A stretch of 57,750 nt of DNA, filler included, from Perkinsus olseni (taxonomy: Eukaryota), in the NCBI GenBank assembly GCA_013115125.1. It is 3 parts of 3 records of this genome, joined end to end, with 100 filler letters (N's around TTAATTAATTAA, not from the genome) between each part and the next. Parts side by side here need not be neighbours in the genome. Positions count along the whole stretch, not along the records: positions 1 to 19,286 come from JABANN010000601.1; positions 19,387 to 38,567 come from JABANN010000603.1; 1 more part is not named here. One strand, given 5' to 3'. A program made the position numbers and the translations under genes. The notes beneath the pieces are model-generated. The model was given only the letters and a program-made list of their open reading frames with translations, had not been told where the DNA came from and did no database searches. Positions 2,931-46,092 of this stretch are shown one piece after another (the first letter of the stretch is position 1; each line of letters starts with the position of its first letter).

Positions 2931-4151
2931 CGAGTACTGTACCAGTACTAACTCACCCTGTGTGATCTACACCCCTTGAAAGCACCAGGGCCACCATTAA
3001 AACGGCTCTCCTTTATTTCGCCACAGAAGCGTTGATTTACGTTGCGAGTAAGAATCGTTTCCCTCATACCACTCGCTCATCAACTCGCGTTTCGAAACAG
3101 AGAACTCGTTCCCGTCATCGCGATTGCAATGCCCTTCCATTCTTTAAACGCTCCCTCTCCTCAGACCTCGTCCGTCCTGTCTTCCGGAGATTCTCCCACC
3201 GTCTGCTCCGCGACACTCGGAGATGCCCTCGACCGGGCTGGCATGACGATGATGGTAAAATACTGCAGCACGATGGACGAATTGAGTTCACTTTACACAA
3301 AAAATTTCAGAATAAAACGGATCTGTCGCTACGAATCTTGAAATCTTTTTTGACACATGGTGACCACCAGACGATATCATGTAGTAATAATACAGAGGTT
3401 GATGACAGGGTACCGCAGAAAACAAGATACCCTGGAAAATCGCCACGCATAAGGCAACCGAAAGGAGAGCAGATCTCGATTCGGGATTTAAAAATGGTTC
3501 TCACGATAGACACTACAAGTTGAATCAGTGCAAACACGACGAATTTCGTGGCGCGCGACAAGATTCACGCTGCAATCTAGCGATTTTATGACGACGAGAG
3601 AGAGAAAAAAAGAAGGAATGGCTACACTACAGCACGGGGTCTTGCAATCTTGCTATATCTTGCAATTTCCCAATGCGTAGTCTAAGTCTACTATTTCTTC
3701 CATCACAACCACCATTGCTTTGTGCAGCTCTAGACATGATGTTAAGACGCCGGGAAAATTGAATCAATAATAGCGGAGCGTAGCAGCATGCTGCGGCGTC
3801 TAACCACCAGAGGAACCTAATCGATCAGTCGGGCGAGCGAGATCTCCATTTCGCAAATCTTACAAATCTGACCTCCCTCGATCTTACTTAACTTGGATCG
3901 TAGGCGCTCGGCCACCTGAGAGAGAGTTCCAAATGAACACTCGACGAACCATTCTATAGGGCTCATATGCAAAATCTTGCTTTCTCGCATTTCCTCAACG
4001 TTAAGATATTCACTCAGAAGGTATTGAGGGACTACAGGACCAAATTGTCGAATTCTCATGTCGAATAATGATGAAGAATTTCCCAGGTTCAAATCCCAGC
4101 GGCGACATTTCGAAGTAGCCATAGAACAGTTAGAATCAACCCCCTAGTCAC

Positions 4152-4434
4152 CTCTGTAGTTGAAGTCTTCTTAGCTGCCATCTCAGGACTTGATCGCGGA
4201 CAAATCGTGCCAGTTCTCACCCGTCCATTTGGTCTAGCCGGCGAGGGATACACCATAAATCTCTAAGTCGGGAAGCCACTAGTTCAATTCCCAGCAGTGG
4301 CATTTTATTCGTCACTCTAGAGGGCTGGGGCACTTGCACTCTGACTCTATCCGACCTCCTCGGTCGACTGTGCCGTCGTCCGTATGGCTTCCTGCAGCTG
4401 CTACCAGACCCACACCAAACGGGGGGAGAGGACC
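4152..4434 (-). CDS. Probable Ser/Arg-rich exons, possibly a continuation of the 4734-7725 gene
   Basis: Exons GSSPPVWCGSG...VPQPSR and RFMVYPSPARPNG...KKTSTTE join in phase across a 53-nt GT-AG intron (4263-4315). The link to neighbouring exons is unresolved. Confidence 0.4.
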
Positions 4435-4733
4435 CTGGACAGACCCGAGTTCGATTCCCAGCCACGTCAATATTCTCCACAATTCACAGTGGGTGGGTCG
4501 TCCGATGATATTAAAAAAACTAAACGGCAAAAATGAATTTCCGTAAATTTTCGACTGTAGACTGTAAATTTACGTGTAAAGATGGTCTCTTAGTAATAAC
4601 TACTCAGACTGAACTACAGAATCACCCCATTCCCTGAAAAATGCCCTTTACCTAAAGTTCGTAAAGTCTAGTAAACCTACTACCTAAGGTCTAGTTCTTT
4701 CCAAAAAAAACCGACTTCTGCTTTCTTTCCTCG

Positions 4734-7725
4734 TTACTCGGGAGACTCTGCCTGAACGTCTACGTCCCCGCCCCGGACCTCAGCCTTCGAGTTGGAAACT
4801 CATCCCAGTAAATGAATATCAACCCAAAAAAATCGAGACCACCCATCACCAACTCTATTAATAAAACTACTACGCCAAAAAGCCATCCTCTCTCCACCCA
4901 CCTAGCCCAGGTGCCATCGGCCTGACAAGTTTCCTCCCGAGCGTCGGAGTCGACAATCTGCTCGACCCTCGGCTGCCGACACTCAAGTGCTCACATGGTG
5001 ATGTGCCGCGGCCAGTTCGCGGAGAGGGGGACTTGGACGATCTGCGCTGGAGAGGGCTTGCTGAGAAGACGGAGCGTTGAGGAATCGCAAGAGATCAAGT
5101 GGAGGACCTGCTGTCTTGACGAATACACTCGGCGAAGCGTTGAGAAATAGCAAGAGAGCAAGTGAAGGACCCATTATTTTGACAAACAGACTCGCCAAAG
5201 CGTTGAGAAATAGCAAGAGATCAAGTTAGCGCGAATCACAAGTTTGACTCACACTGCCGATCGGTCATAGGCATCACGTGCCGCTGCACTCGACTGGCAC
5301 TTGGCCGAATAGGTGACTTAGATACCTTCCAAAAAAAGGTCCCAGGTTCGATCCCCGGCCGCGGCATCTCGACACTCACATGACTATCATCGTCCTCAAC
5401 AGAAGAGCCTTTGGGCGAGTTGCTCCCACCATCCGATCCCCGCCCAAAAAGCATCCCCATATCTTCATACTCTTCCGGGCACAGCTCCAACGTATCTTTA
5501 TCACCATCTATGTGAGTAGCGCGCGCCCAGCTGATCGATCTCCTGTAATTACAATTCTGTAATTCTGTAATCGATCTTTTCAATTCATTTGTAAGTAATG
5601 AAATTTATGGAGAAATTGTGATTATCTTTCTCTCCAGAAATTTCAGAGTCCGCATGTAGTTCTCGCAAAAAGCGCGCGCCCGACTGATCGATTAACTGCG
5701 AACCACCTCACCAGCCATGCTTGGCCCAGGCATATCCTTCCGCGTGCGAACGTCGTCGCTCATGTCAAGCTCGGTGGTACCGGCTTCCCCCATCAAAGTA
5801 GGTGAAGACCTCAGCCTCCGTACACTGCCCACTGAATGGAGACCAGCAAGACCCATAATCGATCACCAGGGCGAGCGCTAAATGCATTACCACCATCCAG
5901 TGGATTGTCTTTCTCAGACTTCCTCAGCGCCACCTGATTCCGCAGCTCTCCTCGGGCTTGGCGGATCAGAGCGGCAGCTGTATCAGCGGACAGTCTAAGA
6001 AGACCGATCATTTACGGAAGGAGCGGTATCAAGAAATTAAGCACAAACCTTAATTCGTTTTGTTGGGAAGTGGGCGGTGGGGGCGTGTCCGCGCTATCCA
6101 TCGACAGCTGCGAATAATCACCTTCGTGGAGGGTTGTGAGACAACCTGAGAAGACGGGAAAATTGTATTACTCATCCGGGTCAACGGCCTTTCCGCAATA
6201 GAAAATTCCGAAGTTTCTTTTCGCGCAAAAATAATCTAAATTTTACAAAATTTTCCTCGAATCAGCCCCCATTCACCTAAGCTTCGTCACGACAACCCCC
6301 TCAAGAAACTCCGAAAATTAGCACATCGAAATTTCTCGCTTCAAAAACTAAAATTTTCCACCTCGAAGAAAATTTAGATTTTTCACGTCGAAATTTTTAC
6401 GCAATAAAATGAACTCCGTCATCTCCGTCAAATTATTTCTCGATCCTTTTTTCCACTTCCCAAAATCCACCTTCCAATTTTTCCGAAACTCACGCCCAAA
6501 ATGAGCAGTGAAAGCCCCAAGCTGGGACTGGCCGCGTTGGACGATAAACTTAGAAAATTTATTAGTAATTAAAAAAGAATAAAAATAACTCAAACTCGGC
6601 AGCGCCTACCCCGAGGAGGAGCCAACCTCCTTCCTCCAGTAGCGAGAACCTTGCCGGGTGCCGAGGCTCGAAGAAAATCGTTAATTCGAGAGTCGCCGGA
6701 CGCGTCACTTCCATGCGGGAGCACGCTCGAACTCTCAGGGAAGAAGCCATTAGACAAGGAGGTCGATAACGACAATGATTTGCTTGTTGAGGGAATAGAC
6801 GTCTTCAGCAGCTCAGCCAGGGAAGCCTATGTACATGAATGAGTAATCCAAAGGTCTCCGGTTCGATACCGGCACCTGTCATCCTCACATTTTTTCGCTC
6901 CAGGTCCCTAGCGGTGTTCCAAAGTTCAGCATAGTCCCTCTCGAGGTCCTTCAATGTCGACAACACCTCATCCTTCTCATGCAGCGCTCGAGTCAGCTAC
7001 AACAGCACTCTCATCCGGTTCGAGGTCCCAGGTTCGATCCCCGGCTAGGTTACTTGCTGTTTAATTTTGGCAGTCTCCCCCGCTTTTTCTTGTATCCAAA
7101 ATTCCCGTTCCAATGACTGATCATCAACCTGACTGCATCAGTCCCTACCACTCCTTCCGTAACTCCCCACCTGACGCTGTATCAAAGCCCGAGCTTCCTT
7201 CTCTCTGGCCAACTCCGCCTTCAGTCTACATAACTAAATAGATGACACAGAAGAATTGATGGCCCGACAATCTCGCTCGCCCGAGAAAACCGTTTCACGA
7301 TATTTTCCAGAAAAACCTTCCGTTTCGAAAACCGTACCGTATGGCCTTTAGAAGTCCTCCTGGCTTGATCAACTTCGATCAACAAAGAGTCTGACTGAAC
7401 CACTTCTCGGCGTTGTACTTGAGACTCACTCCCAGAATTTTCCGGAAAATTTTCCGGAAATTTTCTCGCGGCGCCCGAATCGAAAAGCGAACGGAAACGT
7501 GAACCGTCGGGAATGAACCGGAAAAAACCGTTTCATGCATTATTGGGCGAGCGAGATTCCCCTTACCTCCAATTCAACATCTCCCTTTCTAGCGTCTGAT
7601 GATGATCCTGAGGAAAATGGCGAGCTAGCGCCGCCGCCGCCGCTCGAAAAGGCGGGTTTCCGATCTCTGATCTCTCGAGCCGGGGAGGGAGATATAGATA
7701 CCGTGGAGAGGGTGGCTCGAGGCAT
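4734..7725 (-). CDS. Multi-exon hypothetical protein with an N-terminal coiled coil and a long Ser/Pro/Arg-rich region
   Basis: Exons join in phase across GT-AG introns: ...KGDVELE | SQVQRRE...KGHT | LCRLKAELAREKEARALIQRQ | LTRALHEKDEVL...LERKN | ASLAELLK...; later VGSVRR...DMPGPSMA | DGDKDTLEL...DDDSH | VSKSP...DRQ | SSPLQRRSSKSPSPRTG... The middle exons and both termini are uncertain. Confidence 0.55.
5075..5227. repeat. About 2.5 copies of a degenerate ~60-bp tandem repeat (intronic)
   Basis: The core GCGTTGAG(G/A)AAT(C/A)GCAAGAGA(T/G)CAAGT recurs at about 60-bp spacing. Confidence 0.8.
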
Positions 7726-7734
7726 TCAGATAAC

Positions 7735-8105
7735 TATAAAGATAATCGATCAACCGTTTCCTTGTAGGTATACATAGTTATATATCGATCAACTGTTTCA
7801 TTCACATATACAGAGTAAAATAATCGATCGAGCGTTTNNNNNNNNNNNNNNNNNNNNNNNNNNNNNNNNNNNNNNNNNNNNNNNNNNNNNNNNNNNNNNN
7901 NNNNNNNNNNNNNNNNNNNNNNNNNNNNNNNNNNTTTCATTCATATATACAGAGTAAAATAATCGATCGAGCGTTTCATTCATATATACAGAGTAAAATA
8001 ATCGATCGAGCGTTTCATTCATATATACAGAGTAAAATAATCGATCAACCGTTTCATCATAGGTATACATAGTTATAAATCGATCAACCGTTTCATTATG
8101 TACAG
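7735..8105. repeat. 39-bp AT-rich minisatellite spanning an assembly gap
   Basis: Unit TTTCATTCATATATACAGAGTAAAATAATCGATCGAGCG occurs on both sides of the N run, with diverged flanking units. Confidence 0.9.
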
Positions 8106-8857
8106 TAGATGTCAATAGACATTTCTGCCGGCAAAACATGTCATCCCTGGGATTCGAACCCGCGCCCTAATTAATACAACTTAACCTCAACTCCGTTACG
8201 ACTCCCAACGACTATTTATAACATGCTAATACCAGCAATGAGGGTACCTCACAATCGATCACGCGGGCGAGCGCGTTGTGCTATCACGCATCCGCCGATA
8301 TATGCTTGATATTGACGCAAAGCTGGTCCTTGCAAGTCTGAGAAGGAAACCTTTCTTTACTGCAACAGAGCAACTCGAAAAGGTTCATCCACAGTTTGCA
8401 CATTTTTTCGGCCGTTCCCTCACGCGTTACACCCCGCGGTTAAGATCAACATCATCCGTTTTTTCACTCTTTTCATCAGCCATCATCGGCAACCATGAGT
8501 AATTGGTGCCATGTGAGAAAGTTCTTCTATCACTAGGGTAGTGAAAATTAACGTAATTGCACGAAACTAATACTACATCAAATTTTGCCGATTACATAGC
8601 AAATCAACTTCGCGGGGACAACGTCCTCTCGTAAATTGCGAAAAAAGCGAAAAAATGCAATTAAAATGCAATTAAAATACCAATCAAGCGATCAACTTTA
8701 CGTAAACGAGAAACTAATTTACTCACGGCTAAGCCGTGAGTTGAGGCCGCGGAAGCTCAGCTCTCACTCTCTCTGTGGAAGTCTTCCCCTCAAATGCGGC
8801 GGCAAGCTTCGGGTATATGTAGCTCCGAAGCTTCGCCTCAAGTCACCATCCACTCAC

Positions 8858-9325
8858 CATTTTGAAAGCGACTTTCGGCAGCATCAAAAGCTTCTCAAAA
8901 CTCTTCGTATTCGCAAACATAAACGCCAACAGCCGATTCACAAAGGTCTCGCTGGCCTGCTCCTAACATCCGAAAGGTTCATGGTTCGAACCCCACACCC
9001 GTCATTTTTCCGTATACCTCCCCAGGCTTCACAAACCGTATCACTGCCTGCTCTACAGAGCTCACGTCGTGACTCGCTTCGCCATACCAGTACACACAGC
9101 CACTACCACCCTAACACCAATTCATTTAGCGCGCGCCCGGCTGATCGATTTCAGCTCACCAATATCGGGTCAGCATTTCTATCAACATTTTCCCCGATCG
9201 CTCGAAGCACTTCGGCCACTTTTTCTTCGCTTTTGAACATATCCCGAGCCCGCGGATGCACATGCTCTATCCACCGCCTGAAATAGCGATAATTTCGTGG
9301 CGCGCGACAAAATCTCGAAGATTCC
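8858..9325 (-). CDS. Partial model of a conserved alveolate protein, possibly of the His-Me finger ('zinc-binding loop of homing endonuclease'-like) family
   Basis: In-phase exons ...NYRYFRRWIEHVHPR...DPIL | GGSGCVYWYGE...IRFVKPGE (9018-9110) | EQASETFVNRLLAFMFA...PKVAFKM (8858-8962). The family call is from recollection of similar dinoflagellate/apicomplexan proteins. The last exon was not located. Confidence 0.55.
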
Positions 9326-10120
9326 TGAGATCGTGTATCAATAGATTAGTAAGCAATGCGTATATGTATCGCGAGTGTATACAAAAAATTCGTAAAAAAT
9401 CGTAAAAAATTCCGGATTCGAAAAAAGTCGCAACCCGCTATATTGTAATAAGATTTACCTAATTCACATTCTAGACGATACGAGACACGGATTTCTGATA
9501 GGTCTGAAATTACCGCGCGCCACGAAATTCCTACCTAACCAAGTCGTCCAGCTCTACGCCCTGCCGTGGACGATACCCGTCGGTGCTCTCCTCAACAGTT
9601 CGAGTCGTTCCTCGTCTTCCCCTGAGATACCAACAATTCCCCAACTCACACAAAGCCAGAGGGCGACACTCAGGCTGCATAGAACTTTTCACATCGGAAA
9701 GACTCATTTGATGGTACTTTTTACCCGAGAAAAAAATTTACACCGTAACTAAAGTGATGACCGATGCCCTCTGGAATCTCAAACTCATCATTCCATCGCT
9801 GATGAGTAAAATCAACCAATCGCACCGGGAAAAACGAGAGACACTCTTCAAGGCCGCCATCGCCGACGACAGTTGGCCACTCTGCGCGTTTACATCACTT
9901 CCATTGAGACACCTCGTTGGTCGGACCCGAGCGACGTGAGCGAGGATTGAATTAGAAACTCGGAAAAAAACCAAAGGTATTAAGCATGCCTTCTCGTAGC
10001 GACCGTCAAGCCAGCGTCAACAAGCCCACTTCAATGCAGCACCGCAAGGCCATTGCTGAGCCTTTCAGTGATGAACGGCATTCAGACAGACCATACCAAA
10101 CTCTTCGCGAGAAAATAATC

Positions 10121-10178
10121 AAATTTTCCCGAGAAAGAATCTCAAATTTTCCCGAGAAAGAATCTCAAATTTTCCCGA
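10121..10178. repeat. 23-bp tandem repeat, about 2.5 copies
   Basis: AAATTTTCCCGAGAAAGAATCTC repeated. Confidence 0.9.
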
Positions 10179-11280
10179 TCGACCCGAGCCAGCCTCCTCG
10201 ATAAGCCAGCTCGATTACAGAAACTCTGACCACCTCGCCTCAGTCCGATAGATCCATCGTCGGTTCCGATTCGTTACATAACGAAACCGCATCCTGTGCC
10301 AGAACAGAATGGGATGACAATTGAACTAACTACGCCAATCACCTCAGAATGCCGCACTTGGCGCGCGAGAGATGCACTTTGAGCTCTCCACAACAATAAA
10401 GTTATGGCACGGAAGATCGACACGGCGTAAAATTCCCTTCGTTCAAAGACCTAAGCGGTCCGATTTCAGTATGTGAGTTTGTACTTGTCGGAAAAGGTCG
10501 GAAATTTCGCACTTAAAATGCTAGCGCATCCTGAACAGAAGTTTTTCGCTTGTGCTCCGGGAGACTTCAGAGAACTTCTCTCGGTAATCATTCGCTTTCC
10601 GATTTTCACCGTCACGTCGGAAAATGCTTCACTATCCATCACCATGGCTTTACCACACGACCAGCAGTGACTAACGGAAGGAGTCCAGCAATAACATGCA
10701 AAAAAAACCGGAAAAAAATTACCCGCTCGAAAATTCACGAGCCCAGCAGAAAGCGAACAACAAGCGCCTCGCCTATCAATTTTCAATTTTCAACCTTTCC
10801 GAAGTGAGCCCCGATTCCTCAGTACCCGTGCCTTTGTCGCCTCCGATGGTCGCCAGCCGTCCCGAAAATGGCGCCGAAAGGATCCTCGACGCACTGCCGA
10901 CAACGGAACATGATCCAAATCGGGAAAGAGGTGAAACTGTTGGGGGCCACGACCAAGCTGGGGCTATCACCCAGCTATCAAAGAGAAAACTTCTAGGATG
11001 ATCTCAGGATACTCGATTACGAACAGACTCCTACTCGGAATCGTGGCTTCGCACCCGTTCACACACACAGTAATGTATATCGATCAGAGCGGCGGGCAGA
11101 TTCAACATGCTCAAATATTCTTTTCCATCACCGTGCACTGATAGAGGGGGCCAATTACACCTCTCGATTGACAACGGCGTCGTCTTGTCGTCACGACATT
11201 CCGTTAAACCGGGTCCTCACGTGGTTCGGACGGAACTCGCAGGGAACACGATCTTTGCAGCCCTGCACCAGATCCCTCCA

Positions 11281-12132
11281 ATGGCGACCCAGCACATCCT
11301 CATCGCCGCATTAGCTTCTGCTGTATTTATTTCCAACTTACCCGTCGGTAACACACTCGGTGCACTGGCCCCACAAGTTGAAGTAAGCTCATCTGTTGCG
11401 GCTGATTTTGTGATCAAACTCGCTGTTGTGTGGACATCTCGTTGAAATCCTCTGCAATTTTGCGCAGAATTAGAGATTTTCCACCGCTAGTGGACTGGGG
11501 GCTAAATCCAGCTTTCAGCGAAGACGGTTTTGAAGATTGCTATGACGCTTCCTGCGTCTACACCAGCGGTGAAAGGAACACTCACGACTGGACAAATTTG
11601 GAGGTTCAAATCAGGGAGCTCGATTACATCTATACAAAAACCATCGATTGTCCCGGGGCTACCTGGCGGGAAGGATTCAGGAGCGATTTGTAAGGCAGTG
11701 ACTGTGACTGGCTCGTGCGCATACATATTTCCTCTTAAAGATCCTTTATACAGCCCTCTCAGTATGGTCTTCATAAATTCCACACTGGCATCCCAATCGG
11801 TGTTTATTTCCAAGAATTCCAAGCTCGTGGCGAAGATCAAGAATCGCGGGCGCCTCCTATCCCTGCCGGTCTGGATTTTCTAAGAAACTCGATTGATAAT
11901 TCAACCATCACCCCGATATTGGAGGAGCTGAGAAACAGAAACAGCAACTTTCTTATATTTTACAGGACGTATAAAACCTGCCTATAAGTTAGTAAAGAGA
12001 GCCTGTCTCTCCTTGCGCGAGGCCATGATGAAGAAATTCGGTTCGATTGGGGTTATGTGCGATGAGTACTACAGAATGTCGAAGAAGGCCCTCCAGACTG
12101 CCCAGGCAGCAACCAGAAGCGATGTGGCGTGA
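11281..12132 (+). CDS. Lineage-specific secreted protein, multi-exon
   Basis: Signal-peptide-like start MATQHILIAALASAVFIS; GTAAG donors; terminal exon GRIKPAYKLVKRACLSLREAMMKKFGSIGVMCDEYYRMSK...DVA* is conserved with the paralog at 15484-15666. Confidence 0.5.
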
Positions 12133-12409
12133 TTGCAAGAAAAAGGAGAAATTATCGATTGCACGGTGCTGCCTCATTTTCATCGCGCAAGATCAGGAGT
12201 GGTTTGAGAAGAACACGAAGAATAATCGACTCAATCAATCTTGGATATATCAAGTTACTCCCTTTTTTCAAAGTTTGACGTGTGACCATGCTTTATGACT
12301 TAGCTGCTATCCATAAAATATTCATGCAAAGATGTGTGATGATGTATTTGTGCTGTTGAACCGACAGTATTGATGTTACGTCAGTCGAATTTGGTAGCCC
12401 GCTGTGATT

Positions 12410-13275
12410 CACCAGCCATGCTAGGCCCAGGCATATCCTTCCGCGTGCGCATATCTTCGTTCATGCCAAGCTCGGTGGTGGGGTCGCTTCTCCCAGCAAA
12501 GTGGGTGAGGACCTCAGGTTGCATAGAACTCTTCACATCAGAAAAAAGCGGAAAATTTTTTTCCGATTTTTTTAACCAAAGAATCATTTGACCCCGTAAA
12601 TTACGGGATGGCCGATGGCCTCTCCATTCCTTTCAAACGCCTCTTTCCATCGCCGGAAAACGCCAAAATGATACGCATGTCTTGAAGACATTGTCTTCCC
12701 TCAGCGACCCTCAATCTAGCATAAACAAGACCACTACGATGCACCGCCGCAAGACCATCGCAAATCCTTCCCTCAATGCACGTCGTTCAGATAAGCCGTG
12801 TCATTTTATTCGCAAAAAAACGCCTGCCAAATTCCCTCGTGAAATGATATATTTTCAAGGAAAAGTCGCAAAACCCGTACAACACACTGAGCGACTCGCG
12901 CCAGCCTCCTCATTAAGCGAACTGAATTACAGAAGCTGTGACGACCTCGCCGCGGTGTGAAAGACTTTTATCGGCACTGATAATTTGTCTGATTTTGTCG
13001 GATAATGAAAACGAATCCTGTGCTCGAACGGGATAGATTCACCATGGAGGTAACTACGCTAACTATCTTCAAATCGAACATGCATGAGCCCGGCAGAAAG
13101 CCGACAACAATCAATGTGTGCGTTACGTACCAATAATCAAATTTAGATTGTCAATTTCTGAAAGTCAGCCTCAATCCCTTACTACCCGTGCCTTCGTCGC
13201 CTCCGATGGTTGCCAGCTGTTCCCAAAAAGGCACCGCATCGATCCTCGACGCACTGCCGACAGCGGAACATCATT
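12410..13275 (-). pseudogene. Degenerate or mosaic paralog of segments at 5712-5815 and 9665-10915
   Basis: Block-wise nucleotide similarity. Peptides TTEL.M..D.RTRKDMPGPSMA and MFRCRQCVED..GA..GTAG.HRRR.RHG are conserved with synonymous changes, but other blocks contain stops. Confidence 0.45.
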
Positions 13276-14565
13276 AAATTTTTAGGGGACTATGAACGGC
13301 ATTCTCATCGAAATTTGGAGCTTTTGGAACATGCTCTAGACGACTGTGAGGGGGCAAGACTGAAACCAGGATCACCTCGAAATGCAAAAATTCCACGAAA
13401 TTTGCTGAGACTACGGAAACAAGAACGACCTACACATACCTCCATCAAATTAAACGAGTATAACTACTTTCAGCATTCTCAACAACCAGGACTTGATCCT
13501 AGGTTGGGAGGCTAGAGCGACTACCCAAAACCCGTCTGGATACTACCATCACACGACACCATTTCCAGACCTACTTAGTTAAACCCCAGAGCATTTGATA
13601 AGCAAATTAGTAATACCCCAAAGTTCAGTTTCATGAAAGACCAATTCAGTAGAGCCCGAGGAAGTCACCAACAGATACGGAACAGCTCACACCCGTCAGC
13701 TTACACGAAGTATTCCCTCGATATCCCACAGACGCAGGTTGAAATTTAATTGTTGAACATTCGAGTTGGGGCTCCGCTGACATGCCTTCCATGGCTGAGC
13801 AACGAGGTTACAATGTTTGGGTGCGATTGGAGCATCGTATACATACACACCGTGTACCTACATATAGTAGTGATCGCTTAAAAACCTTCTAAAGCAACAT
13901 CCCACAGTCCCGCAGAGGTAGTCTGACTTCGGTTTACCGCCTCGCCACTCATGGCCGGAGTCCCCAGGCCGGGAGGAAGGAACCACAATCCAACGCGAAA
14001 GAACACGACGGATATTCGACAGAGTAAGAAAACCGAAAAATGCAGCAACAGACGGGCATGACCGCAGCTCCTAGGAAGCTCCCCGGCAGCAACTCAAATT
14101 TCAGAGGCTCGAGAATTTGCCCTTGGTAGCCGACGTTCGGAGCGGACGGTTCGGACAAAATGAAGCCACCAACGGATCCGTCGTGAATATTCATCAAGAT
14201 ACCGTCGCCTAGGTTCGAACTCGGGACCTCTGATAAACTCAAGCCTAGGAGATTCTCTCATACACAAGCAATAAAGAAACAGGAACATCCTCTATGACTT
14301 GAACACTTATGAAAAACTGGTAGGTGTTTATAAGGCTACCGTGGCCTCGGATTAGAAGTCCAGTATTTAGATTTCCTGAAATAGCGGAAAAGTTGGTATG
14401 CAGCATATGAGATGAGCGTAATGATCCATAGTATCCGAGAAGATTCCGGAGAAAGATGAAGCAAAAAATTATCGTTGTCAAAAAAATTCAACTGAAATCC
14501 AACACAGAAAACTTTATTCGGCCGCTAAAACTTCACGATACGTCAGAAAAATTCTCGGAAGAACT

Positions 14566-17500
14566 TTAATATTTTCCACAGTCCGTGAGCACGAAGCCAT
14601 ACTGCCCGCAGAGAGGACGTGGAAAACGATAAATTCGGAATTTTTCTTCCGCCGAATTCCAGTCCGAATTAGTACCTCATAGTCCTCCAAAGGGAATGAA
14701 TCGACTTCAACTTTTCCTTTCACCCAGGCCTTCAGGGAACTCACCAACTGTGACTCCACTGGATGCTCAACCACCACAACCTCGCCGTTTTCGTTGAAAT
14801 CACCGGGAATAATCAGTTTCTGTACAGAGAGTACCTGAACACGCAGAGAAAAAACATCTACCAAAGACCGAACCCCGTACCTTAGGCTTACCAGGCGACT
14901 AGTACTCATAATGAGCATCTCAACATCTGGTCTCCGAGCCATCTCCACTGATACCGTTTCAAACACCACTTTGATGTCGTGGTCACGGCATGCCTCGAGC
15001 AAGAGCTCCCTGATGGTGCCGCTCAAAACCTGAGTGAGCACTGCCGTTACTCAGCACGCACCGAACGTTCTGCACATGCGAGAGGAGCTAGTAATCCCTT
15101 GACATTCTTTACTTCTCTCATTCTTCACCTTAACATTCCATCATCCCTCGGAGGGGATAGTGCTACTCATTACGCACCGATCGTCTCGTGCATGCGTGCA
15201 TACACGCACATCGTCCTCCCATACACCCGAACCCCCTCCTCCCACCTAGCATTGCTAGGTGGGGGTAAGGCCGTAGCCTATTTGGGGGTAAGGCCGTAGC
15301 CTATTTGGGGGCAAGGCCGTAGCCTATTTGGGAGTAAGGCCGTAGCCTATTTGGGGGCAAGGCCGTAGCCTATTTGGGGGTAAGGCCGTAGCCTATTTGG
15401 GGGTAAGGCCGTAGCCTATTTGGGGGTAAGGCCGTACCCTATTTGGGGAAAAGGCCGTAGCCTATTTGGGGAAAAGGCCGTAGCCGGCTATAAAACCTAC
15501 ATACGCGCTGTTGCAAAATATCTGCATTTCTGTTCGTGAGGCTATGAAGAGAAGATTATGGTCGACGGAAAAGATGTGCGACGAGTACTACAGAATGTCG
15601 AAGTATGTCATCGAAACTGCTGAAGACGAAGGTAGCCCGGCTGGTCTTTATGAACCCCCCGAGTAATTTGATACCAGCGGTAGCGGACCACCTTCTTTCA
15701 CATTGAATTGATATCATCTATCGTAACCTCTTCGCAAGATGCGCAAAAATACTCGCATCTTGAAATGTCTACACCGGTGTAGACGTGGATCCACTGATAG
15801 CTAATCTATAAGACTTTTGATCCTTTTTGACTTCTGATCTGTTGTTTGAGGACATGTTCCCTAAGTGTTGTCACCCTCGAGTACCCTAGAGTTGGCTTAG
15901 GATTCAAGGAACAGTTATCTGTTTGTCTTCATCAATGTCAATCCAAAACTAGGCCTGATAGAGCGGATGACCCAGATGAGTCCGCCCAATCAAGATCTTG
16001 AGACTGAAGACTCCAGTGCTTACACGATTCTCGTTGTCCTGTGAATAGCGATCCAAAGACATTTGATTTGCGCAAATACGCGGTGTCAGGGATCGAACCG
16101 GGATGCGCGCTAATACGCGATGTCAGGGATCAAACCCGGGACCTCCCCAATGAGAACTCCTCACCTTATCCTCTCCAGCGGTGTAGACCTTTCCATTCGC
16201 GACAAAGGCCACATTAGAACTCAGGCCTTCCGTCACGCGGTCATTAGAACCCACCATGACCATCTCCTCTACACCAGTCGCCATCCTCTCGCTGATAGCC
16301 TTCCTCCGCTCCGTCCAGCTCACGTCTTTCACATGGACATTACCTACAGGAAAAATGCCTCATTTTATCGTCGATAATGATTTCGCTTTGATGTTCCCGG
16401 CAGGAGCCAAAGCGGACGATATCAAGATTCTCCATCATCAAGTTCCAAAACTAATGGCTCAATGAGATGCTGACTCTTTTCACCCTACATGTCGTACGAT
16501 TTCAACAATATCCACCCAACCCTCAAGAGCCCGAAAAACGACCAGGGATACCACCAGTAAAAATTTTTGACTGATGAAAAATTCTCCTCGATTGGGACTC
16601 TCGTGTCAAGAGTCGACGAGAAGAATATAGTAATTTTCAATCCGATTTTTAAATATAATCCACAACCTCCCTATAGTGAGTAATACGCTACCCCGCCACA
16701 CCACTCAATCGATTACCTGATCGTTCTCCCCTGGCCAGCTCCGCCACACAGCGGCTGTTCTTGTGCACAGGCAGCGGACAGAGGAACATCCACATGTCCT
16801 TAACTTTATAAGTGATCCCAACCGTCACTTGCGCCTCGAAATCCTCCGCCCTGGCGTGGCCGTTCAAAGCCGCTATGCCCTTAAGGCACATCTCCTTAAC
16901 CTTCTTTCCAAGGGTGTCCAGCTCTGCAGCCTGAAAAAAAGCTAAGAAGGGAAATTCCACATAACCGATATTTCGGAGAAATTTCTGATCGGAAATGCAC
17001 CGGCCCCGGGCGAGGTAGACCACTTGCCTTGCGCTCCACCAAACACTTTCTTCCTTAAGTCAGCTAAGAAGGATAGCAAGAGCCTCCTTCAAGTTCAGGT
17101 AATCACAGCCCCCAATAAAACCTATTCCAGCTTCACTCAGGGCAACACGATAATTCTGTCACAACTATTTTCACCTTTGTTAAATACCCTTTATTATACC
17201 GTAAAATTCGCAACTTAGTATAGCCGATGGTGTTATACCTTCACACTCAACAACATTTTTCATCACTGATAATTAAAACACTCAGTGACTTTCATACCAC
17301 AAATTCCGCAATTAAGCGCTGCGAAACAGTCGACAATAGCGATATACAAATTCAATCATCTAATACTACCACTACGCTACTACTCCGAAAGACGAGGCCA
17401 ACGATCTAAGCACTACCAGATCCGACACAAAGGCCAGCGCGGACGAACCGTCCCACAGCAGCGCTAGCCCTCTCACTATTACATCATCAGTATCCTCATA

Positions 17501-17650
17501 CGCTGCCGAGAGCCTCTTGATGTGTCTATCCAAGGACAGTATCCGAGTAGCGTTGAAAGTGGTTCGCATAGTGGTGAATACACCACCTTCCAGGGCGAGC
17601 GCGTGGAGGAAGGACGCCTTGGTCAGTCCCGGTGGGGTTACCTGAACCAT
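14566..17650 (-). CDS. Class IV PLP-dependent aminotransferase-like protein (D-amino acid aminotransferase / ADC-lyase fold), 6 exons, about 297 aa
   Basis: Exons 17483-17650, 16717-16930, 16165-16343, 14892-15029, 14676-14834 and 14566-14601 splice in phase. Motifs GVFTTMRT, LDRHIKRL, VKDVSW (candidate PLP Lys), EGLSSNVAFV, VLSGTIR, STSRLV. Confidence 0.85.
15261..15485 (+). repeat. 23-bp tandem repeat, 10 cores, spliced-leader-like
   Basis: Unit GCCGTAGCCTATTTGGGGG(T/C)AAG, with cores at exact 23-bp spacing from 15271 to 15478. Confidence 0.95.
15484..15666 (+). pseudogene. Isolated terminal-exon paralog of the 11281-12132 gene, nested antisense in an aminotransferase intron
   Basis: PAIKPTYALLQNICISVREAMKRRLWSTEKMCDEYYRMSKYV...PPE* aligns with GRIKPAYKLVKRACLSLREAMMKKFGSIGVMCDEYYRMSK. 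Confidence 0.7.
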
Positions 17651-19386
17651 CACAGCTCTGAAAATATTTTGAAATAAATTTCTGATAGTTTTTATGCTTA
17701 AAATATTGAAAAATGAAAATAAAATTTTCGTTCGGTTCCCTCCTCTGTCTTCAATAAACTATTTCCAAAAAAGTCAAAATAAAAAATTTTTTCAGTTCGC
17801 TCATTATTATAGAATTGTCTTTAATTAAGCTTCATTAAACTGGCAAATTCCAGCGAACTTATTAACAATTTAATATGCTTTGATAGACTTATTGAACTTT
17901 CGAATTGCTCTGTCTTCAATAAACTATTTCCAAAACTCAGAATCAAACTTCAAAAAATCCTTCGGAGAGAAAGATTCAATTCTTTCAAGAAAGAATTGTT
18001 TTCCCGTGAGATGCTGTACTAAAATCAACAACGACTTTCACTATTTTTCCGTGAAAAACGGAAGCATCCAAAAATACGAACCGAACGAGTAGCGACAGCC
18101 AAGCAGACCAACAATCAATAAAACAATAGAGGAAAGATTCCTCCCAAATGAGAAGTGCCCTCTCATTGGTCCATCTATTCACTATAAAGACAAGAAAAAA
18201 TTACTTCTTTCAATAAAGAGTTAATTTTTCCCCGGAAATGCTACACTACAATCGACTCTGAGTTCCAGTACGAGTTAACTGAGTGACCCCACTATTACCA
18301 GTAGCCTTCCATTGCGCAACAAAGCGTCCTTCTGATCGGCTTCCTTGGGAGCGGCTCCCGGAAGGCCCTTGGTGAGCTCTTCGTTAAAATCGATGATTTC
18401 GTTGAGGGTGATGTTTGACGGTGAAACGGTCGCGGTCATATTTATTAAATATACACTACTGATTCATCCCTTGTCCGCTCTGAAAGCCGACGCTACAGAG
18501 GCTGGCCCGTTTGGTGATAGAAAATGCGGAAAAACGCCATATGCCGGGATCGAACCCGAGTCACGCACGAGACGGTAACAATCAATGTCGTCGTTGGCGG
18601 TCGTCTCCTTCCTACAAGTGCCTCTTCAACCTTCACTGCCAATCGAGCGCCTGGTCGGTCGCCTTTCTTCGGCATTATTGCAGCTTGAGACGGTCCACAG
18701 AAGCTGTGGCCTTCAGAAGACTTTCCATATTACATTTTTACGCATATCGGTGGGGAAGGGAATTCCGTTGTTCTTCAACAATTAGGCGCTCAATCGCCCG
18801 GTCTGCTTCTAGGCAACTCGCTCCCTGTAGTTAAAACAGCAAGAACAGCTTTTCTCGGGGATTTTCTTCGTTTCAATAAAAGGCTTTTCACTCCAGTCAG
18901 TCTCGATGGCTCCCATTCATCATCGCCTCTCGTTGTTGTTTGATAACCACATCCGCGAATTTCCTACTCCTATGGCAACAATGCTACTGAGCTTACGACG
19001 ATCTTGAATAGACCGAGTCCTACGCATTCGTTTTAAGTAAAAGCGGCCAAGACTTTACGCGGGCTTCAATAACAATTAGTACAACCAAGTATTGCGCCCT
19101 ACCGTCACGCTAGAGGACACAGCAAAACTTGAAAGACGAGTATTCAATCATTATTTTCAATCGGTTCTCTACATCCTGAACGCCCCTTCAGGTTGCCCTC
19201 ATTCGGCTAATATTGACAGTGGGTACCCTTCTTGGACTTAGGATCCACTGTGTGGTCACCCTCGTACTCGCTAACACTACTCTTCGNNNNNNNNNNNNNN
19301 NNNNNNNNNNNNNNNNNNNNNNNNNNNNNNTTAATTAATTAANNNNNNNNNNNNNNNNNNNNNNNNNNNNNNNNNNNNNNNNNNNN

Positions 19387-20008
19387 CCAACCTCACGTAG
19401 AGAGTATCATTGAGGAATCGGATTGATGTAGGTTCCTTCAAAGCGCTGTTCGTGATGGTTCTCACAGCGTGATAGTCCGGCCCGCGATGGGAGAATGCAT
19501 AGATCTTGTTGGAAGCCTTCCCTGTAACATAAAGGATGTCCTCCTGGTCATCGAAGGCCACACCTGTATAACCCTTGCTAGGCTCCGCCGGGGCAATCAA
19601 CACCAAGGCGTCGGGGCTAGCCGGGTTCACTGCGTACACCGCTCCGTCTGAGATGCCATAAATGACCTTGCCGCCGTTGCTCGCCTGAATATCAGAGAAG
19701 TCCTTGTCGGCAACGACCTCATGCTTGCTTCGACCAGCAATCGGCGCCCTCCACAGTTTACCAACACCGTCTTCCGTACCAGCGATGTACCAAACACCGG
19801 TGGAGGTCGAAGTATAAGTAACGACAGATACGTTTCCGGCGGGAAGGATATCGGGGTGGTTGTTGCTGTCGACCTCACAGAACTCTTCACTCGAACATAC
19901 ACTCGTAGTGGGGGTATGAAGTAGACCTCTGAGCCTGATGGAAGCCTTAGCTGGAGATAGGCTGGTAGCGAGGAGTCCGATCCACAATGCAATCGAATGG
20001 GCAATCAT
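19387..20008 (-). CDS. Secreted beta-propeller-like protein (NHL/SMP-30-like repeats), truncated by a gap
   Basis: Signal peptide MIAHSIALWIGLLATSLSPAKA; propeller-type motifs GVAFDDQEDILYVT and PTSIRFLNDTLYV. Confidence 0.65.
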
Positions 20009-20653
20009 TTGGAGGATGCTGCAAAGATAAAACTAAGTGGATGGACTGATAGATGACTGACCGAAATGAATTGTAGAATAGATATGCTTCATCATACTCG
20101 AGTACTCCCTAGAACTAGCTATTGAAGCTTAGGAAGCTCCATGGAACATACAGATCCATCCACGCCCACTTTGTGTTCTGCAAGGGAGATCTTAAAGCCC
20201 TTTGCCTTTCTCGAAACCTCTGTAACCTCCTATAGGTCGATTATCGGCGAGCCACGAATGACCTCAGATTTCCGAGGTTGCTGAGGGAGATTCTCCGAGA
20301 GCATTGTGAATTGGAATTACCCTTCTTTCACAGGATCAAGCGCATATGTTCAAGCGATTCTTTGATTATTATCTCCACACACAGGAAACGACGATGACGT
20401 GATTGCGCGGAACCGTGCGTTGAAATGACGACCATCCATGCATCGAGAACGGATGCTCGGAGACGATTTCGGCATCGTCTTGCGACAGTGGAGGGAGAGG
20501 ATGACCAGGTTGTCCGCGCTTCCCTCGACAACCACTCTGGCGAGAGACCTTCCTCGACTCTGCCCAAGATGGAGAATGAGCTGAATAGGATCTTCACGAA
20601 AATCGATTGCCCCGTAACAAGATACATTCAGTCATGCCAAACTGAATCTGTTT

Positions 20654-20800
20654 GTTTGGCTGGTTAAGGCAATTGATAAAAGTTTCACTTGTGATTTGTC
20701 TATACTACTTGCTATTGATTGGCCTGTGCTGCTTGCGGGCGTTTCTCTGTCCGTTTGGCTGGTTAAGGTTGATAAACGTTTCACTTGTGATTTGTATAAT
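20654..20800. repeat. Imperfect direct repeat of about 50 bp, two copies
   Basis: GTTTGGCTGGTTAAGG..TTGATAAA.GTTTCACTTGTGATTTGT at about 20654 and 20753. Confidence 0.8.
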
Positions 20801-23800
20801 CTACCATGTCAAGAACATGACAATGACGTGTATAATTCCGTTTCCACTCAAGTGATACCAAACACCAAATCATCTTTATCTGTCTTATCCGGCCAACTGG
20901 CTAAAGGACTGAGTGGTCTGGCTTCTCCAGCTGACCGCGGAGCAGCTAACTTGGGTCGGTTTAAGGCAGGCTATCTGCTCGGGGTTACGAGGTATTGATT
21001 GAGATGGATCCATTGGAGGGGGTACTTCTTGTGATTCAGTGGAAATATGGTATTTATGTAGCACGCTCTCCCTCTTCTACCAATACCGTCGTTTCAGACT
21101 GACAAGTGTCAGCGTTGCAAGATTCGCGTGCAACAGTACGCCCTCAATGACACTTCGAACACAACAAGGGATATTGAAATGTGCACTAATGCGCAGCGAC
21201 GGCCGTTGTCGGGCTCATCACAGGGGATGTCACTGAAGCATCACCGGGCTTAGCCCGTTGAAGCTCCAACACTCTTAAGCAGGGACCCGATGGGTAGAGC
21301 GGATACAAGTTCATAACGGGCAAGTCAACACGTACCTCCTGACCGAGGGACCTGAGCGATCCCATTTTTTAGTAGAAAGAATTTACTTTTTCAAGTAGAT
21401 TAGAGAAAAAATGGAGGCGAAAAAAAACAAGTCAATCATTCGAGTCACCCAGAACTCGATGCACCACACGAACATGATGGCATTGGACAAGTTGTGAGAT
21501 ATTCTTACGTATTAAGACGCTCGCTGAGAGGCTTCTGAACAACTGGAGAGTACTGGGCAACGAAGGAACCAAAATGCTGGAGATATCCTTCAACCTGCGT
21601 GCGTGTCAACTCTCGCCATATGCTGTGTATCGCCTGAAAACAACAACCAATACACCCTATCTCCGCCCAGCCAATTCTGCGAAGTAAGAGTACCACACTC
21701 CGATGAGCGCCGAAACGCTAATCCCCACCGGTGCGCGCAGCGCGCTGGTTGAAACGATAAGATATTCTTGGCGAAGCGGCGATGATTCACCACAGTCCTT
21801 GACACAACAGGGACGATCGGGTTGTTCAGAGAACTCATTTTGAAATTCAGAATCGATTCTGGAATCGATTTTCCCCCCTTAAATGCGATTCAAGAATAGA
21901 TTGCGAAATTCAGAATTGATTCTCTGAACAACCCGGATATCTTTCGATCCGTGGAATCCCGCTGCGCTCCGTCGGCTTCTCACATTTTTGGCCCGCCGCT
22001 CGGCGGGGTACCCTCCCGAAGCTTTCGCGAATTCGAGGGCTTCATCAACACCCTTCCTCAGGTCCCCAACAGCTCCGACTAAACGCGAAATGAAACCTCT
22101 TTCCCGATAATCAGTGTACCTAAGCGTTGAGGAAATCCAAGAGAGCAAGATGCCGCAAGTGAGTTCACTCGACACGACATGACCCGGGCGGAAGCAATAG
22201 GTCAAGCCACTCGTTCGAAAAGAGCTGCCCGAGGACGTCTTCCATATCGGAAACTGTAAAACATGAAGCTGTTCTTCAGCGGAGCGATGCACAACCTCAC
22301 CGTCATCCGAGGAATGCAATGGAAAGTCCATAGACCGCACAGCCTTCACACAGAGATCCCCCACTGCCCGATCGATTGGCGATCCAGTGAGAGCTCGAAC
22401 TGCAACATTCTGAGAAAGAATCTTGCGCACAGCGGAGAGTTAAGATACGCCTCGTTAGCTTGCGCGCACAGCAAAGATTTCCCACCGATAATATCTTACT
22501 TGTGCCCAATCAAAACAGTCGCTTTTTGCTTTCGACCCTGGCCAGATCCCGGGACCAGCTCCATCCTCTTCCCTTCCCTGCGGTACCGCTTTCTTGTGAG
22601 AGTTACTACTCACACCACTTGAGGGATTGCTGAACTGACAACGGAACGCGTTGAGGAAACGCAAGAGTGCAAGATCTTCTCACCTCGTGTGCTCGCTCGC
22701 ACTCCCCTACAGCGAACTCAGCAATAGACGCGAGTCTCATGACCGTCGTTGAGTATATTAAAACGCGATACATCGCTACGACTAATTTCTGACGGCAATC
22801 GGGGTCGAAGACCGTTGCCTCAGAGGAATTGGCCCGCTGGAGGATCCGAGTCCAGGCCTGAGACGACAATCTTGCTAATCTTGCACTTTTACAATTCCTC
22901 AACGCTACTCACATTGCGAGTTTGGTACTCTTTCAGCTGTAATGACTGTATCTCGTTTATGGCATAGCCCCCGAAGATCCGGAAGTCCTGCTTGCAATTG
23001 TGAATATACTGCAGCAAGAAGTCACTCTGAAGAGTTGGGAAAGGAGTGGTATGACAAACAGCACGCATGCCCAAACCGCCACTACTACCCGATGGAATTC
23101 TATGTCCAATTCGGCGCAACTCCGGGCTAGTCTATTCATACACCGCTTGAGCTGCTCGATCCTCAGTTGCATTCTAATATTAACGTCCTCGGGAGGGATC
23201 GAACCTGCGACCTCTGGATGCTCCAAGTGCAAACAAGAGGGAACCCCGACGATAGTTCCGAGATGAGATTCGGAGGAAAAGAGACCTTCCACTTCCTCGC
23301 TGATCCCGCTCCCCAGTCTACTGAAGGGACATCCCTGTGCAGTGAGAATCTTCTATCTCCCGTTTTGAAAAGTCCGAATGGTAGAATCCCTTACAGTAAC
23401 GGACATCTAAAGATGCAAATTGCGGATATATACAGAGGCCCTTTGGCTGCAATTTTAGGTCCAAACTCGGTCTTGGGAAGAGTTACCTCTGCACACGTAA
23501 TTTGCATCTTTACATGTCCGGTACTGTATTACACCGCCACTCGTTTCTGATCATCGTCGTTTACACGCTCATGCATTCTACCCGACAACTTCAATTTCTA
23601 CAGGAATCTCCGTCAGAAGGTTTCCAGCGAGATCCCATAATTTCGCGTGCAATCCCCAATCGATCCAATCTTGCAGGCAGTTTCACAGGGACGACAAACC
23701 CCTCCCTGACCCCCAGCTGCCATTACCCTTCTCATCAACATGCTTGCAGTCAACTAAGACAAGCCTCTCATCGCCAGACCGCATCGAGGTGGGTATACTC

Positions 23801-44925: not shown

Positions 44926-46092
44926 CTACACCTCGACCACCTTATGATCGGGCAAAATACTGGCACCTTGCTTATCGCCATTCTTGGTTTCGACCACCCG
45001 ACCAACGATCCAGCCCCACTCCCTGCGAGGATCGTCATCGCCATAGCAGTTCCTCAGAGCCTTGACGAATTTCGCGGCAGTTTCCTCGTCCTTAAGCATG
45101 ACCAGCAGGCCTCCACTGGTCTCGGACGCGCGGCCCTCGAACAAGCCGTAGTCCCTGCCATTCGGTCGGGCTGTCGATAGGGTCTTGCAGCCCCTGATGA
45201 CCGGTATGGTGTCGATCTCGATGCTGGCTCCAGACTTCTGCACCCGAGCCAGGTTATCAGCATGACCGAGTAGGCCGAAACCGGTGACATCAGTGGCACC
45301 TAGGGCACCGAACTCCCGCATGTACTTGCAGCCGTTCTTGTTGAGAGTCATCATACTGAGATCTCCCATCTTGACGGCTCTGGTACAGGTCTCTGTGTCC
45401 AGGCCAGCATCCACGACCTTAGCCCACTGGCCTTGGTTTATCATCCACAGGGCGAGATTGCCGGTAATCTGCGTACCCAAAGGCTTGGTCAACACGATGA
45501 CGTTGCCAGGCACGGCTAAGTCGGTCCGGACCAGCTGCGACTGGGGTACCGTGGCCATGGCGCAGCCACCCAAAAGCGGCCAGGGGTTGAAGACAGTCTG
45601 ACCACCGGTGACCTTGGTCCCGGCCTCCTCGCAGCAAGCATTGAAACCCTCAATCATCTTTTTGGTGACGATGGTCTGTTCTTCGGGCGACATCTTCATG
45701 CTGACTGTGAGTATCATGAGGATGTTGTTGACGTCGTCCGCACCGACGGCGTAGAGGTCGGACAGGGTGTTGGCGGCCGCGATCCAACCTTGGTTGAACG
45801 GGTCTTGAGAGATGGGGGAGAGGAAGTCGGTGCTCGACACGAGGACGCGTTCGCCGTCGCCGACGGGCACCACAGAGCAATCGGGAGAATCTTCAGTTAA
45901 CATGTTGCCATCGCCGATCGCCGGCAAGAAGCTGCTGAGCTGATCGGCTTTGACCTTGCAACCTCAGCCCTTCCTTTCACTGAAGGACGTGAGTACGAAG
46001 TCCTTGGACAGGCCCAAGGAGGTCGGGTCCCACACCCTAGGGGGTAAGGTGCTCTCCGAGGTTGCAGTCTCGGAGGCAGTAGAACTACTCAT
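44926..46092 (-). CDS. SPS2: Selenophosphate synthetase 2 (selenoprotein, Sec43), intronless, 388 aa
   Basis: ATG at 46092 reads MSSSTASE...FSERKG-U(TGA 45964-45966)-GCKV in frame with the 333-aa ORF. SelD motifs TDF, ANTLSDLYAVG, GGQT, LTKPLGT, TDVTGFGLLGH, ETSGGLL. Confidence 0.95.

Follow-up and report, generated by a model that had tools for sequence, protein, structure and literature searches.

Where new spliceosomal introns come from is a long-standing question, and clear examples are so far limited to families of transposons, the introners, and to rare captured fragments. The captured fragments are foreign pieces of DNA taken up at repaired breaks, as in introns derived from organelle DNA. 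Isolated B boxes that bind TFIIIC without RNA polymerase III (Pol III) are known from the extra TFIIIC (ETC) sites of budding yeast and the chromosome-organizing clamp (COC) sites of fission yeast. Here we describe decayed relics of tRNA genes, most of them lying in the introns of two protein-coding genes, in a stretch of 57,750 nt from Perkinsus olseni (assembly GCA_013115125.1). This stretch, three parts of three records joined with 100 filler letters between each part and the next, is called the window below. Several of the relics make up much of very short introns. Among known systems, introners, ETC and COC sites and tRNA-derived interspersed elements come closest.

Introners, as excerpts of PMC11282704 and PMC7789003 present them for Micromonas, Aureococcus, fungi, dinoflagellates and Amoebophrya, resemble the relic introns in that the intron body is inserted, repeated DNA which works in either orientation and may occur several times in a gene. 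They also occur in close relatives of this alveolate lineage. The relic introns differ from introners in having no near-identical copies in the window (one pair has 23 nt in common) and no terminal inverted repeats or target duplications, inverted repeats being found in introns 9278-9534 and 7234-7566. Their common core is about 30 nt of a tRNA gene, apparently taken from several tRNAs, and no autonomous partner was seen, as none of 41 open reading frames (ORFs) matched a transposon protein family. Like ETC and COC sites, some of which may themselves be tRNA relics, the sites carry a B-box consensus outside a working tRNA gene and are clustered; unlike them, the relics are found mostly in spliced introns and retain an acceptor strand and a terminator. 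Short interspersed nuclear elements (SINEs) derived from tRNA likewise disperse B-box tRNA sequence in genes, often antisense and 5'-truncated, but the relics share a tRNA third only, whereas the members of a SINE family seen in metagenome loci have an A box and agree in body and tail. As in introns derived from organelle DNA, a short unrelated fragment would become the body of a new spliceosomal intron, with the difference that the source would be tRNA genes or pre-tRNA copies, repeatedly at one locus. In the same genus, the Dada transposons of Perkinsus marinus break tRNA genes and create tRNA gene fragments, according to excerpts of PMC3706591. The insertion site of Dada is the A box, and the expected fragment would be about 60 nt long and adjoin a transposon end, whereas the relics start near position 44, and no Dada-like protein was found among the 41 ORFs scanned in the window. 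A literature search that did not cover supplementary files returned no description of tRNA fragments in Perkinsus introns and nothing that combines 'introner' with 'tRNA-derived'; the main text of Gozashti et al. 2022 mentions neither Perkinsus nor tRNA.

The relics were located through their B boxes. The pattern GGTTCRANNCC gave ten matches in the window, compared with a mean of 0.98 in 100 dinucleotide-preserving shuffles (maximum 4; none of the 100 reached ten), so that the density, which a first-pass annotation of this DNA had proposed to check, is clearly above the shuffled background. The looser pattern RGTTCRANNCY gave 14 rows. Site 29169(-) was removed, having no further tRNA-like feature and a matrix score below 10, and site 16127/16136(-) (GGTTTGATCCC) was taken in from the first-pass annotation. 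All 13 B-box/T-arm sites of that annotation were present, and together with 26049(+) they form the working set of 14. A matrix trained on these 14, and therefore circular, gave every member a score of 21 or more, while no other site in the window exceeded 11.1. A consensus scan tolerant of transitions gave 17 sites at a score of at least 12 versus 4.7 expected, and newly yielded 14861-14882(-) and a weak site at 9940-9961(-). The relics are spread over a 22-kb stretch rich in repeats and introns. Seven relics in 4.0-9.0 kb are on the plus strand and seven in 8.1-23.2 kb on the minus strand, and neighbours are in some cases spaced 195, 167 and 171 nt apart. With 29169(-) dropped, no site remained in 27-57.7 kb; the earlier remark that the genes at 36-57 kb are free of copies is true, yet introns are scarce in those genes, SelD showing a single 14-residue gap.

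The sites are decayed relics of nuclear tRNA genes and mostly retain the last third, consisting of the variable loop, the T arm with its B box, the 3' acceptor strand, the discriminator and often an oligo-T terminator. Their extension like the 3' third of a tRNA, first noticed by eye, was borne out by C72-A73 at the tRNA distance in 7 of 14 (null 6.2%, binomial p 8e-6) and, in 6 of 14, by TTTT within the 16 nt that follow position 73 (null 5.0%, p 3e-5). AGGTC-like variable-loop letters precede the T arm on its 5' side in about nine copies. A CCA end was found in none of the 14, so the source would be a gene or an unprocessed transcript and not a mature tRNA. The features of a functional tRNA gene are missing. 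No cloverleaf was recognised at default settings, a 5' acceptor strand was not found at any of the 14 sites (lowest p 0.084), and the anticodon stem is absent, with 0-4 of 5 pairs forming. The T stem is paired at 44 of 70 positions, its three outer pairs at 18 of 42, which by our own count is about chance. ARAGORN called no tRNA gene in the window at default settings and gave only weak fits, among 42 noisy calls, at an 80% threshold; the best of these (8139-8212) falls on the relic at 8139-8168. Rfam returned no tRNA match at E up to 10.

The first-pass annotation had seen neither a 5' half nor an A box. This holds for the 5' acceptor strand and the anticodon stem, but in 3 of 14 copies (B boxes at 4281, 5345 and 26049; null 0.86% per site) a perfect generic A box precedes the B box by 43-51 nt, which is tRNA spacing, which implies that a few copies derive from whole tRNA genes. 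For the relic at 4273-4302 the A-box-like letters, TGGTCTAGCCGG, are 51 nt upstream within the neighbouring exon, and for that at 5337-5366 they are TGGCCGAATAGG, 43 nt upstream and also within an exon. The relic at 7023-7052 follows a partial duplicate of itself (CCGGTTCGA).

The copies are diverse. Only the relics with B boxes at 5345 and 7031 have an identical 23-mer in common, and similarity between the flanks of copies was neither above shuffled scores nor detected by BLAST, the common part being the tRNA third only. No copy has an A-rich or shared tail. The relics seem to stem from different tRNAs and, having no common flanks or body and an A box in only 3 of 14, they do not look like one SINE burst, in agreement with the earlier impression. 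The 23-mer is a genuine tRNA T arm, being exact in 8 intact tRNA-Met genes among 120 metagenome loci; 104 of the 120 are copies of a single tRNA-derived SINE-like family, whose members carry an A box and have their body and tail in common. As a Perkinsus marker the 23-mer was ruled out, since it is a generic tRNA/SINE T arm. The SINE-like family occurs as full-length and 5'-truncated copies, often at contig ends, and the T stem of the 8 tRNA-Met genes has an A-C mismatch. Naming the source tRNAs by anticodon-loop-like strings was abandoned as too weak, with 6 of 30 frames fitting versus about 2 estimated by chance and the stems unpaired. That CpG decay produced the CCAGG and CCCAG states common to several copies was ruled out, CpG not being depleted here.

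The relics lie in real, spliced introns. Contigs of four public runs, one recorded as RNA and three guessed to be RNA, were mapped to 3800-19280; their cover leaves out, for example, 8.4-9.0 kb and 9.5-13 kb in three runs. Gene 1 has at least 17 exons, with 621 open codons once the introns are removed, and 16 introns that are all GT..AG. Its product is coiled-coil-like with no Pfam family. Gene 2 has 7 exons and 6 introns and receives a trans-spliced leader at about 18460, where an RNA contig ends in CTTGGCTCA followed by adapter. This string occurs within the P. marinus spliced leader PmaSL1 in the form given by PMC3101222. Between 18439 and 4149 the window is matched collinearly by proteins of P. 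olseni and Perkinsus chesapeaki; where gene 1 aligns, identity to the P. chesapeaki protein is 58-86%. The P. chesapeaki model P0122 (1063 aa) fuses gene 2 and gene 1, seemingly by reading through an intron. The protein P0121 is named quiescin sulfhydryl oxidase, yet it carries PF01063, aminotransferase class IV.

CT..AC joints, which are GT..AG on the minus strand, were found in all four runs at 4263-4315, 6827-6888, 6997-7053, 14835-14891, 3916-4151 and 15030-16164. Introns 5326-5379 and 4435-4901 each have one end fixed by RNA pieces; the 232 contig letters between two mapped exons are stop-free only with both of these introns, and they then fit the P. chesapeaki protein. The basis for 8963-9017 is homology to the P. 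chesapeaki protein together with GT-AG ends. GT..AG ends and removal from RNA are therefore established at both ends for six relic introns and at one end for two, with one more placed by homology. Of the introns predicted in the first pass, 4263-4315 and 6827-6888 were thus seen directly in RNA, 5326-5379 was seen at one boundary and fixed at the other by the length count and the P. chesapeaki protein, and 8963-9017 agrees with homology. The worry that 5326-5379 is exonic did not hold. It is in frame and stop-free, as is 14835-14891, but the contig shows a joint at this place, and those 18 residues are missing from the P. chesapeaki protein. A 53-nt intron at 4435-4487, our first guess, was ruled out in favour of 4435-4901 by the 232-nt length count and the P. 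chesapeaki protein, and it is excluded from the final intron counts. An RNA loose end 'before 9291', taken as a 5.7-kb intron, was also ruled out, as its repeated 22-nt motif is present at 3541 as well; the other six loose-end strings of RNA contigs were not found in the window. A 42-nt GT..AG intron at 7129-7170, the shortest at the locus, would explain why the RNA contig is 42 letters short there and why the alignment to P0122 has a 14-residue gap, and it removes an in-frame stop.

The relics are concentrated in the shortest introns. The two genes have ten introns under 65 nt (542 nt in total) and twelve longer ones (6473 nt), giving 7015 intronic bases. Six of the ten short introns contain a relic, while five relics lie in long introns; the binomial P for at least 6 of 11 relics in short introns is 7e-5, or 3e-5 if the tandem pair is counted once, in a small sample of 22 introns from two genes at one locus. 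The earlier statement that such fragments fill much of introns of 53-62 nt was upheld, since each relic takes up about 30 nt. The 23-32 nt left over fall short of even the smallest intron at the locus (42 nt), and the relic therefore probably belonged to the intron from the outset or else replaced its interior. The relics had also been called mostly antisense to the host gene, which is true of gene 1 (seven antisense, one sense) and not of gene 2, where all three are sense. Relic orientation follows the region and not the host gene, and either orientation to the host gene is expected for inserted DNA.

Table 1. Host genes, tRNA relics and copies of a second short repeat in the window.
Feature	Position	Strand	Setting or basis
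Gene 1	3819..9623, continues below 3819	-	RNA joints; collinearity with P. chesapeaki P0122; open frame
Gene 2, aminotransferase class IV-like (PF01063)	14254..18460	-	RNA joints; P0121; P0122
tRNA 3' relic (tRNA positions 44-73)	4078..4107	+	in 236-nt intron 3916-4151, antisense to gene 1
tRNA 3' relic, then TTTT	4273..4302	+	in 53-nt intron 4263-4315, antisense to gene 1
tRNA 3' relic	4440..4469	+	3' end of 467-nt intron 4435-4901, antisense to gene 1
tRNA 3' relic	5337..5366	+	in 54-nt intron 5326-5379, antisense to gene 1
tRNA 3' relic	6852..6881	+	in 62-nt intron 6827-6888, antisense to gene 1
tRNA 3' relic ending after T stem	7023..7052	+	in 57-nt intron 6997-7053, antisense to gene 1
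tRNA relic	8139..8168	-	in 1624-nt intron 7234-8857, sense to gene 1
tRNA 3' relic, then TTTTT	8975..9004	+	in 55-nt intron 8963-9017, antisense to gene 1
tRNA 3' relic	14200..14229	-	25 nt past gene 2 RNA contig end
T-arm relic (AGGTACGGGGTTCGGTCTTTGG)	14861..14882	-	in 57-nt intron 14835-14891, sense to gene 2; absent from the first-pass annotation
Two tandem relics, period 37 nt	16078..16144	-	about 20 nt inside 5' end of 1135-nt intron 15030-16164, sense to gene 2
tRNA 3' relic, then TTTTT	18535..18564	-	75-105 nt upstream of gene 2 leader acceptor
tRNA 3' relic	23184..23213	-	B-box matrix and pattern scans
tRNA relic	26041..26070	+	A-box-like TGGTCGAGCGG 44 nt upstream
22-nt repeat copies	5518-5539, 5671-5692, 5858-5879(-), 9128-9149		weaker: 8253-8274, 3818-3845

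These results suggest that pieces of tRNA genes helped to create new introns in two Perkinsus genes. We tentatively favour an origin of the short relic introns by insertion of tRNA-gene fragments, at slightly below an even chance. A fragment of a tRNA gene would have inserted into transcribed sequence, and the spliceosome would then have removed it, using GT and AG sites that lie at the ends of the insert or close to them. The inserted fragment could have been DNA or a cDNA of unprocessed pre-tRNA, the latter being conceivable because the terminator is present and CCA absent. The outcome would be insertion-derived introns akin to introners, seeded by short, diverse tRNA pieces and not by one transposon family, and relics that landed in existing long introns or between genes would have stayed there. 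Intron gain by capture of tRNA 3' fragments, as proposed in the first pass, is partly supported. It fits the relics in 6 of 10 short introns, the short remainder, and the other introns of gene 1 that are visibly insertion-derived, with inverted repeats like those of miniature inverted-repeat transposable elements (MITEs) or a second short repeat family; it is plausible and not proven. The wider proposition is that tRNA-gene tail fragments or unprocessed pre-tRNA cDNA are a recurrent raw material for new Perkinsus introns, giving sequence-diverse 'mini-introners' of 53-62 nt whose surviving B boxes may also act as TFIIIC sites. This we regard as unlikely.

Several observations weigh against an insertion origin. 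The P. chesapeaki protein is collinear over every relic-intron junction with no indel, which means either that the introns are older than the species split or that the inserts are excised exactly, and at the one locus compared no case of presence and absence of a relic intron was seen. The relic-intron ends inspected have no obvious direct repeat and no target duplication, and the listed inverted pairs do not bracket the short relic introns. The distance from relic to splice site varies, from 13 to 34 nt on one side and from 0 to 18 nt on the other (in aligned strings that include the rejected 4435-4487), and copies without common flanks do not define a mobile unit. The exon-side splice consensus is only slightly weaker at the relic introns, with G at -1 in 2 of 6 versus 10 of 12 (one-sided p ~0.06, a trend). 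A series of copies that had decayed to the loss of the B box could be hidden, as several known copies score near noise. The intron set is that of 22 introns at one locus, and for three relic introns RNA does not cover both ends. As to function, the intron RNA folds are ordinary (z from -1.29 to +1.48 for eight short stretches, the rejected 4435-4487 included) and the T stems are broken, which makes a role of the relics as RNA unlikely.

Incomplete reverse transcription usually keeps the 3' end and loses the 5' end. The relics show just this outcome, as would be seen if they were neutral debris, that is, 5'-truncated retrocopies or broken tRNA gene pieces in pre-existing introns and spacers, with the short introns trimmed later. 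Five relics in long introns and two outside introns agree with such an origin, and the metagenome SINE family likewise has 5'-truncated copies. So does the biology of P. marinus, for which excerpts of PMC3706591 report that a few tRNA genes are each present in near-identical form, with copies in the hundreds, and that tRNA genes are the targets of transposons. Debris leaves unexplained, however, why the relics are concentrated in the shortest introns (P ~7e-5) and why trimming would spare the relic in 6 of 10 of them, and the copies have no A-rich or shared tail, so that we judge this explanation unlikely. Very unlikely, in our view, is a decayed cluster of same-strand tRNA genes, older than the protein genes or overrun by them, with splice sites evolving around the leftovers. 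The grouping of strands by region, the spacing of neighbouring relics and the A boxes of three relics that extend into the neighbouring exon would all be accounted for. The exons between the relics nevertheless code for a protein conserved with P. chesapeaki, a 5' half has left no trace in 11 of 14 copies, different tRNAs seem to have been the sources, and the relics are spaced according to exon-plus-intron lengths.

A further possibility, compatible with an insertion origin, is that selection keeps the B boxes as TFIIIC sites without Pol III, which would mark or insulate the segment while the rest of each relic decays. In its favour, about 16 copies can be recognised and 14 of them have an intact B-box core, whereas pairing of the outer T-stem positions (18 of 42) is no better than chance; the sites are grouped in 4-26 kb with none in 27-57.7 kb, and they occur on both strands with no RNA structure detected. 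The CpG observed/expected ratio is ~1.0-1.1, so the CpG of TTCGA is under no special mutational pressure. The integrity of the B box is largely circular, though, because the sites were found by it and copies that lose it sink into noise. The loop CpG carries a transition in 4 of 14 (TTCAA three times, TTTGA once), the 14861 site has TTCGG, an A58-to-G change with the CpG kept, and many sites are within transcribed gene bodies. Taken with this evidence, selection on TFIIIC binding appears quite improbable.

For the insertion origin, what matters is that minimal introns verified by RNA at this locus are made up for the most part of a tRNA gene piece that can still be recognised. If this were true genome-wide and the introns were absent in sister species, it would be a new and easily traced source of intron gain, tied to Perkinsus tRNA gene biology with its hundreds of gene copies and tRNA-targeting transposons. 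The relics are also natural test cases for the recruitment of TFIIIC by isolated B boxes in an alveolate.

Together with the relics, short repeated inserts make up much of the intron complement of gene 1. In intron 9278-9534 inverted AATTTCGTGGCGCGCG ends adjoin both splice sites and delimit a MITE-like unit, and the intron looks like a classic transposon-derived one; a solo copy of its end lies at 3541-3563. An alternative 333-nt intron, 7234-7566, joins to the upstream exon 7567-7735; its inverted repeats, at 7269-7287 and 7540-7558, contain a GGGCGAGCGAGATT core. The second short family is a 22-nt repeat, AGCGCGCGCCCGGCTGATCGAT, with four copies at no more than 3 mismatches versus 0 expected, confined to gene 1 introns and present in both orientations. 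The short introns 9111-9159 and 5832-5890 carry it. Inverted pairs of this repeat flank exon 5712-5831, and the repeat is loosely like an antisense tRNA 3' end without a B box.

Other repeats are present at the locus. The stretch 15209-15530(+), which lies within the 1135-nt intron of gene 2 but on the strand opposite to that gene, comprises about ten tandem 23-nt units with CCGTAGCC. The units resemble the Perkinsus spliced-leader exon (PmaSL1, in the printed form of PMC3101222) and may be relic leader copies. A 63-nt tandem repeat (AGCGTTGAGGAA...) occupies 5070-5226 in the 192-nt intron of gene 1, with dispersed or inverted copies at 22123, 22647, 3976-4000(-) and 22878(-), some of them 17 kb away. 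At 7739-8100, within the 1624-nt intron, 39-nt tandem repeats surround an assembly gap (N run 7839-7935).

The left half of the window is rich in repeats and has no long ORFs, and the right half, at 36-57 kb, holds intron-poor genes with long ORFs, namely a GT47 exostosin, SelD and two MFS transporters. The 345-residue ORF at 44926-45963(-) has 97% identity to P. olseni selenophosphate synthetase. For a second gene, exon identities are 94-98% with a different P. olseni protein and 69-89% with a protein of P. chesapeaki. Together with the leader string at 18460, these identities place the window in Perkinsus, close to P. olseni. No transposase or reverse transcriptase was found by Pfam among the 41 ORFs scanned in the window. 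The CpG observed/expected ratio is 1.0-1.13 in the repeat-rich half (1-27000) versus 0.86-0.88 in the gene-dense half (36000-57750), and GC content is 44-50% versus 50-56%. Diverged duplicated segments, 9669-10914 with 12513-13274 and 5708-5814 with 12409-12517, have 65-85% identity and include a copy of a gene 1 exon. Upstream of this paralogous exon copy at 12409-12517, the intron-like sequence is its own and differs from the gene 1 counterpart.

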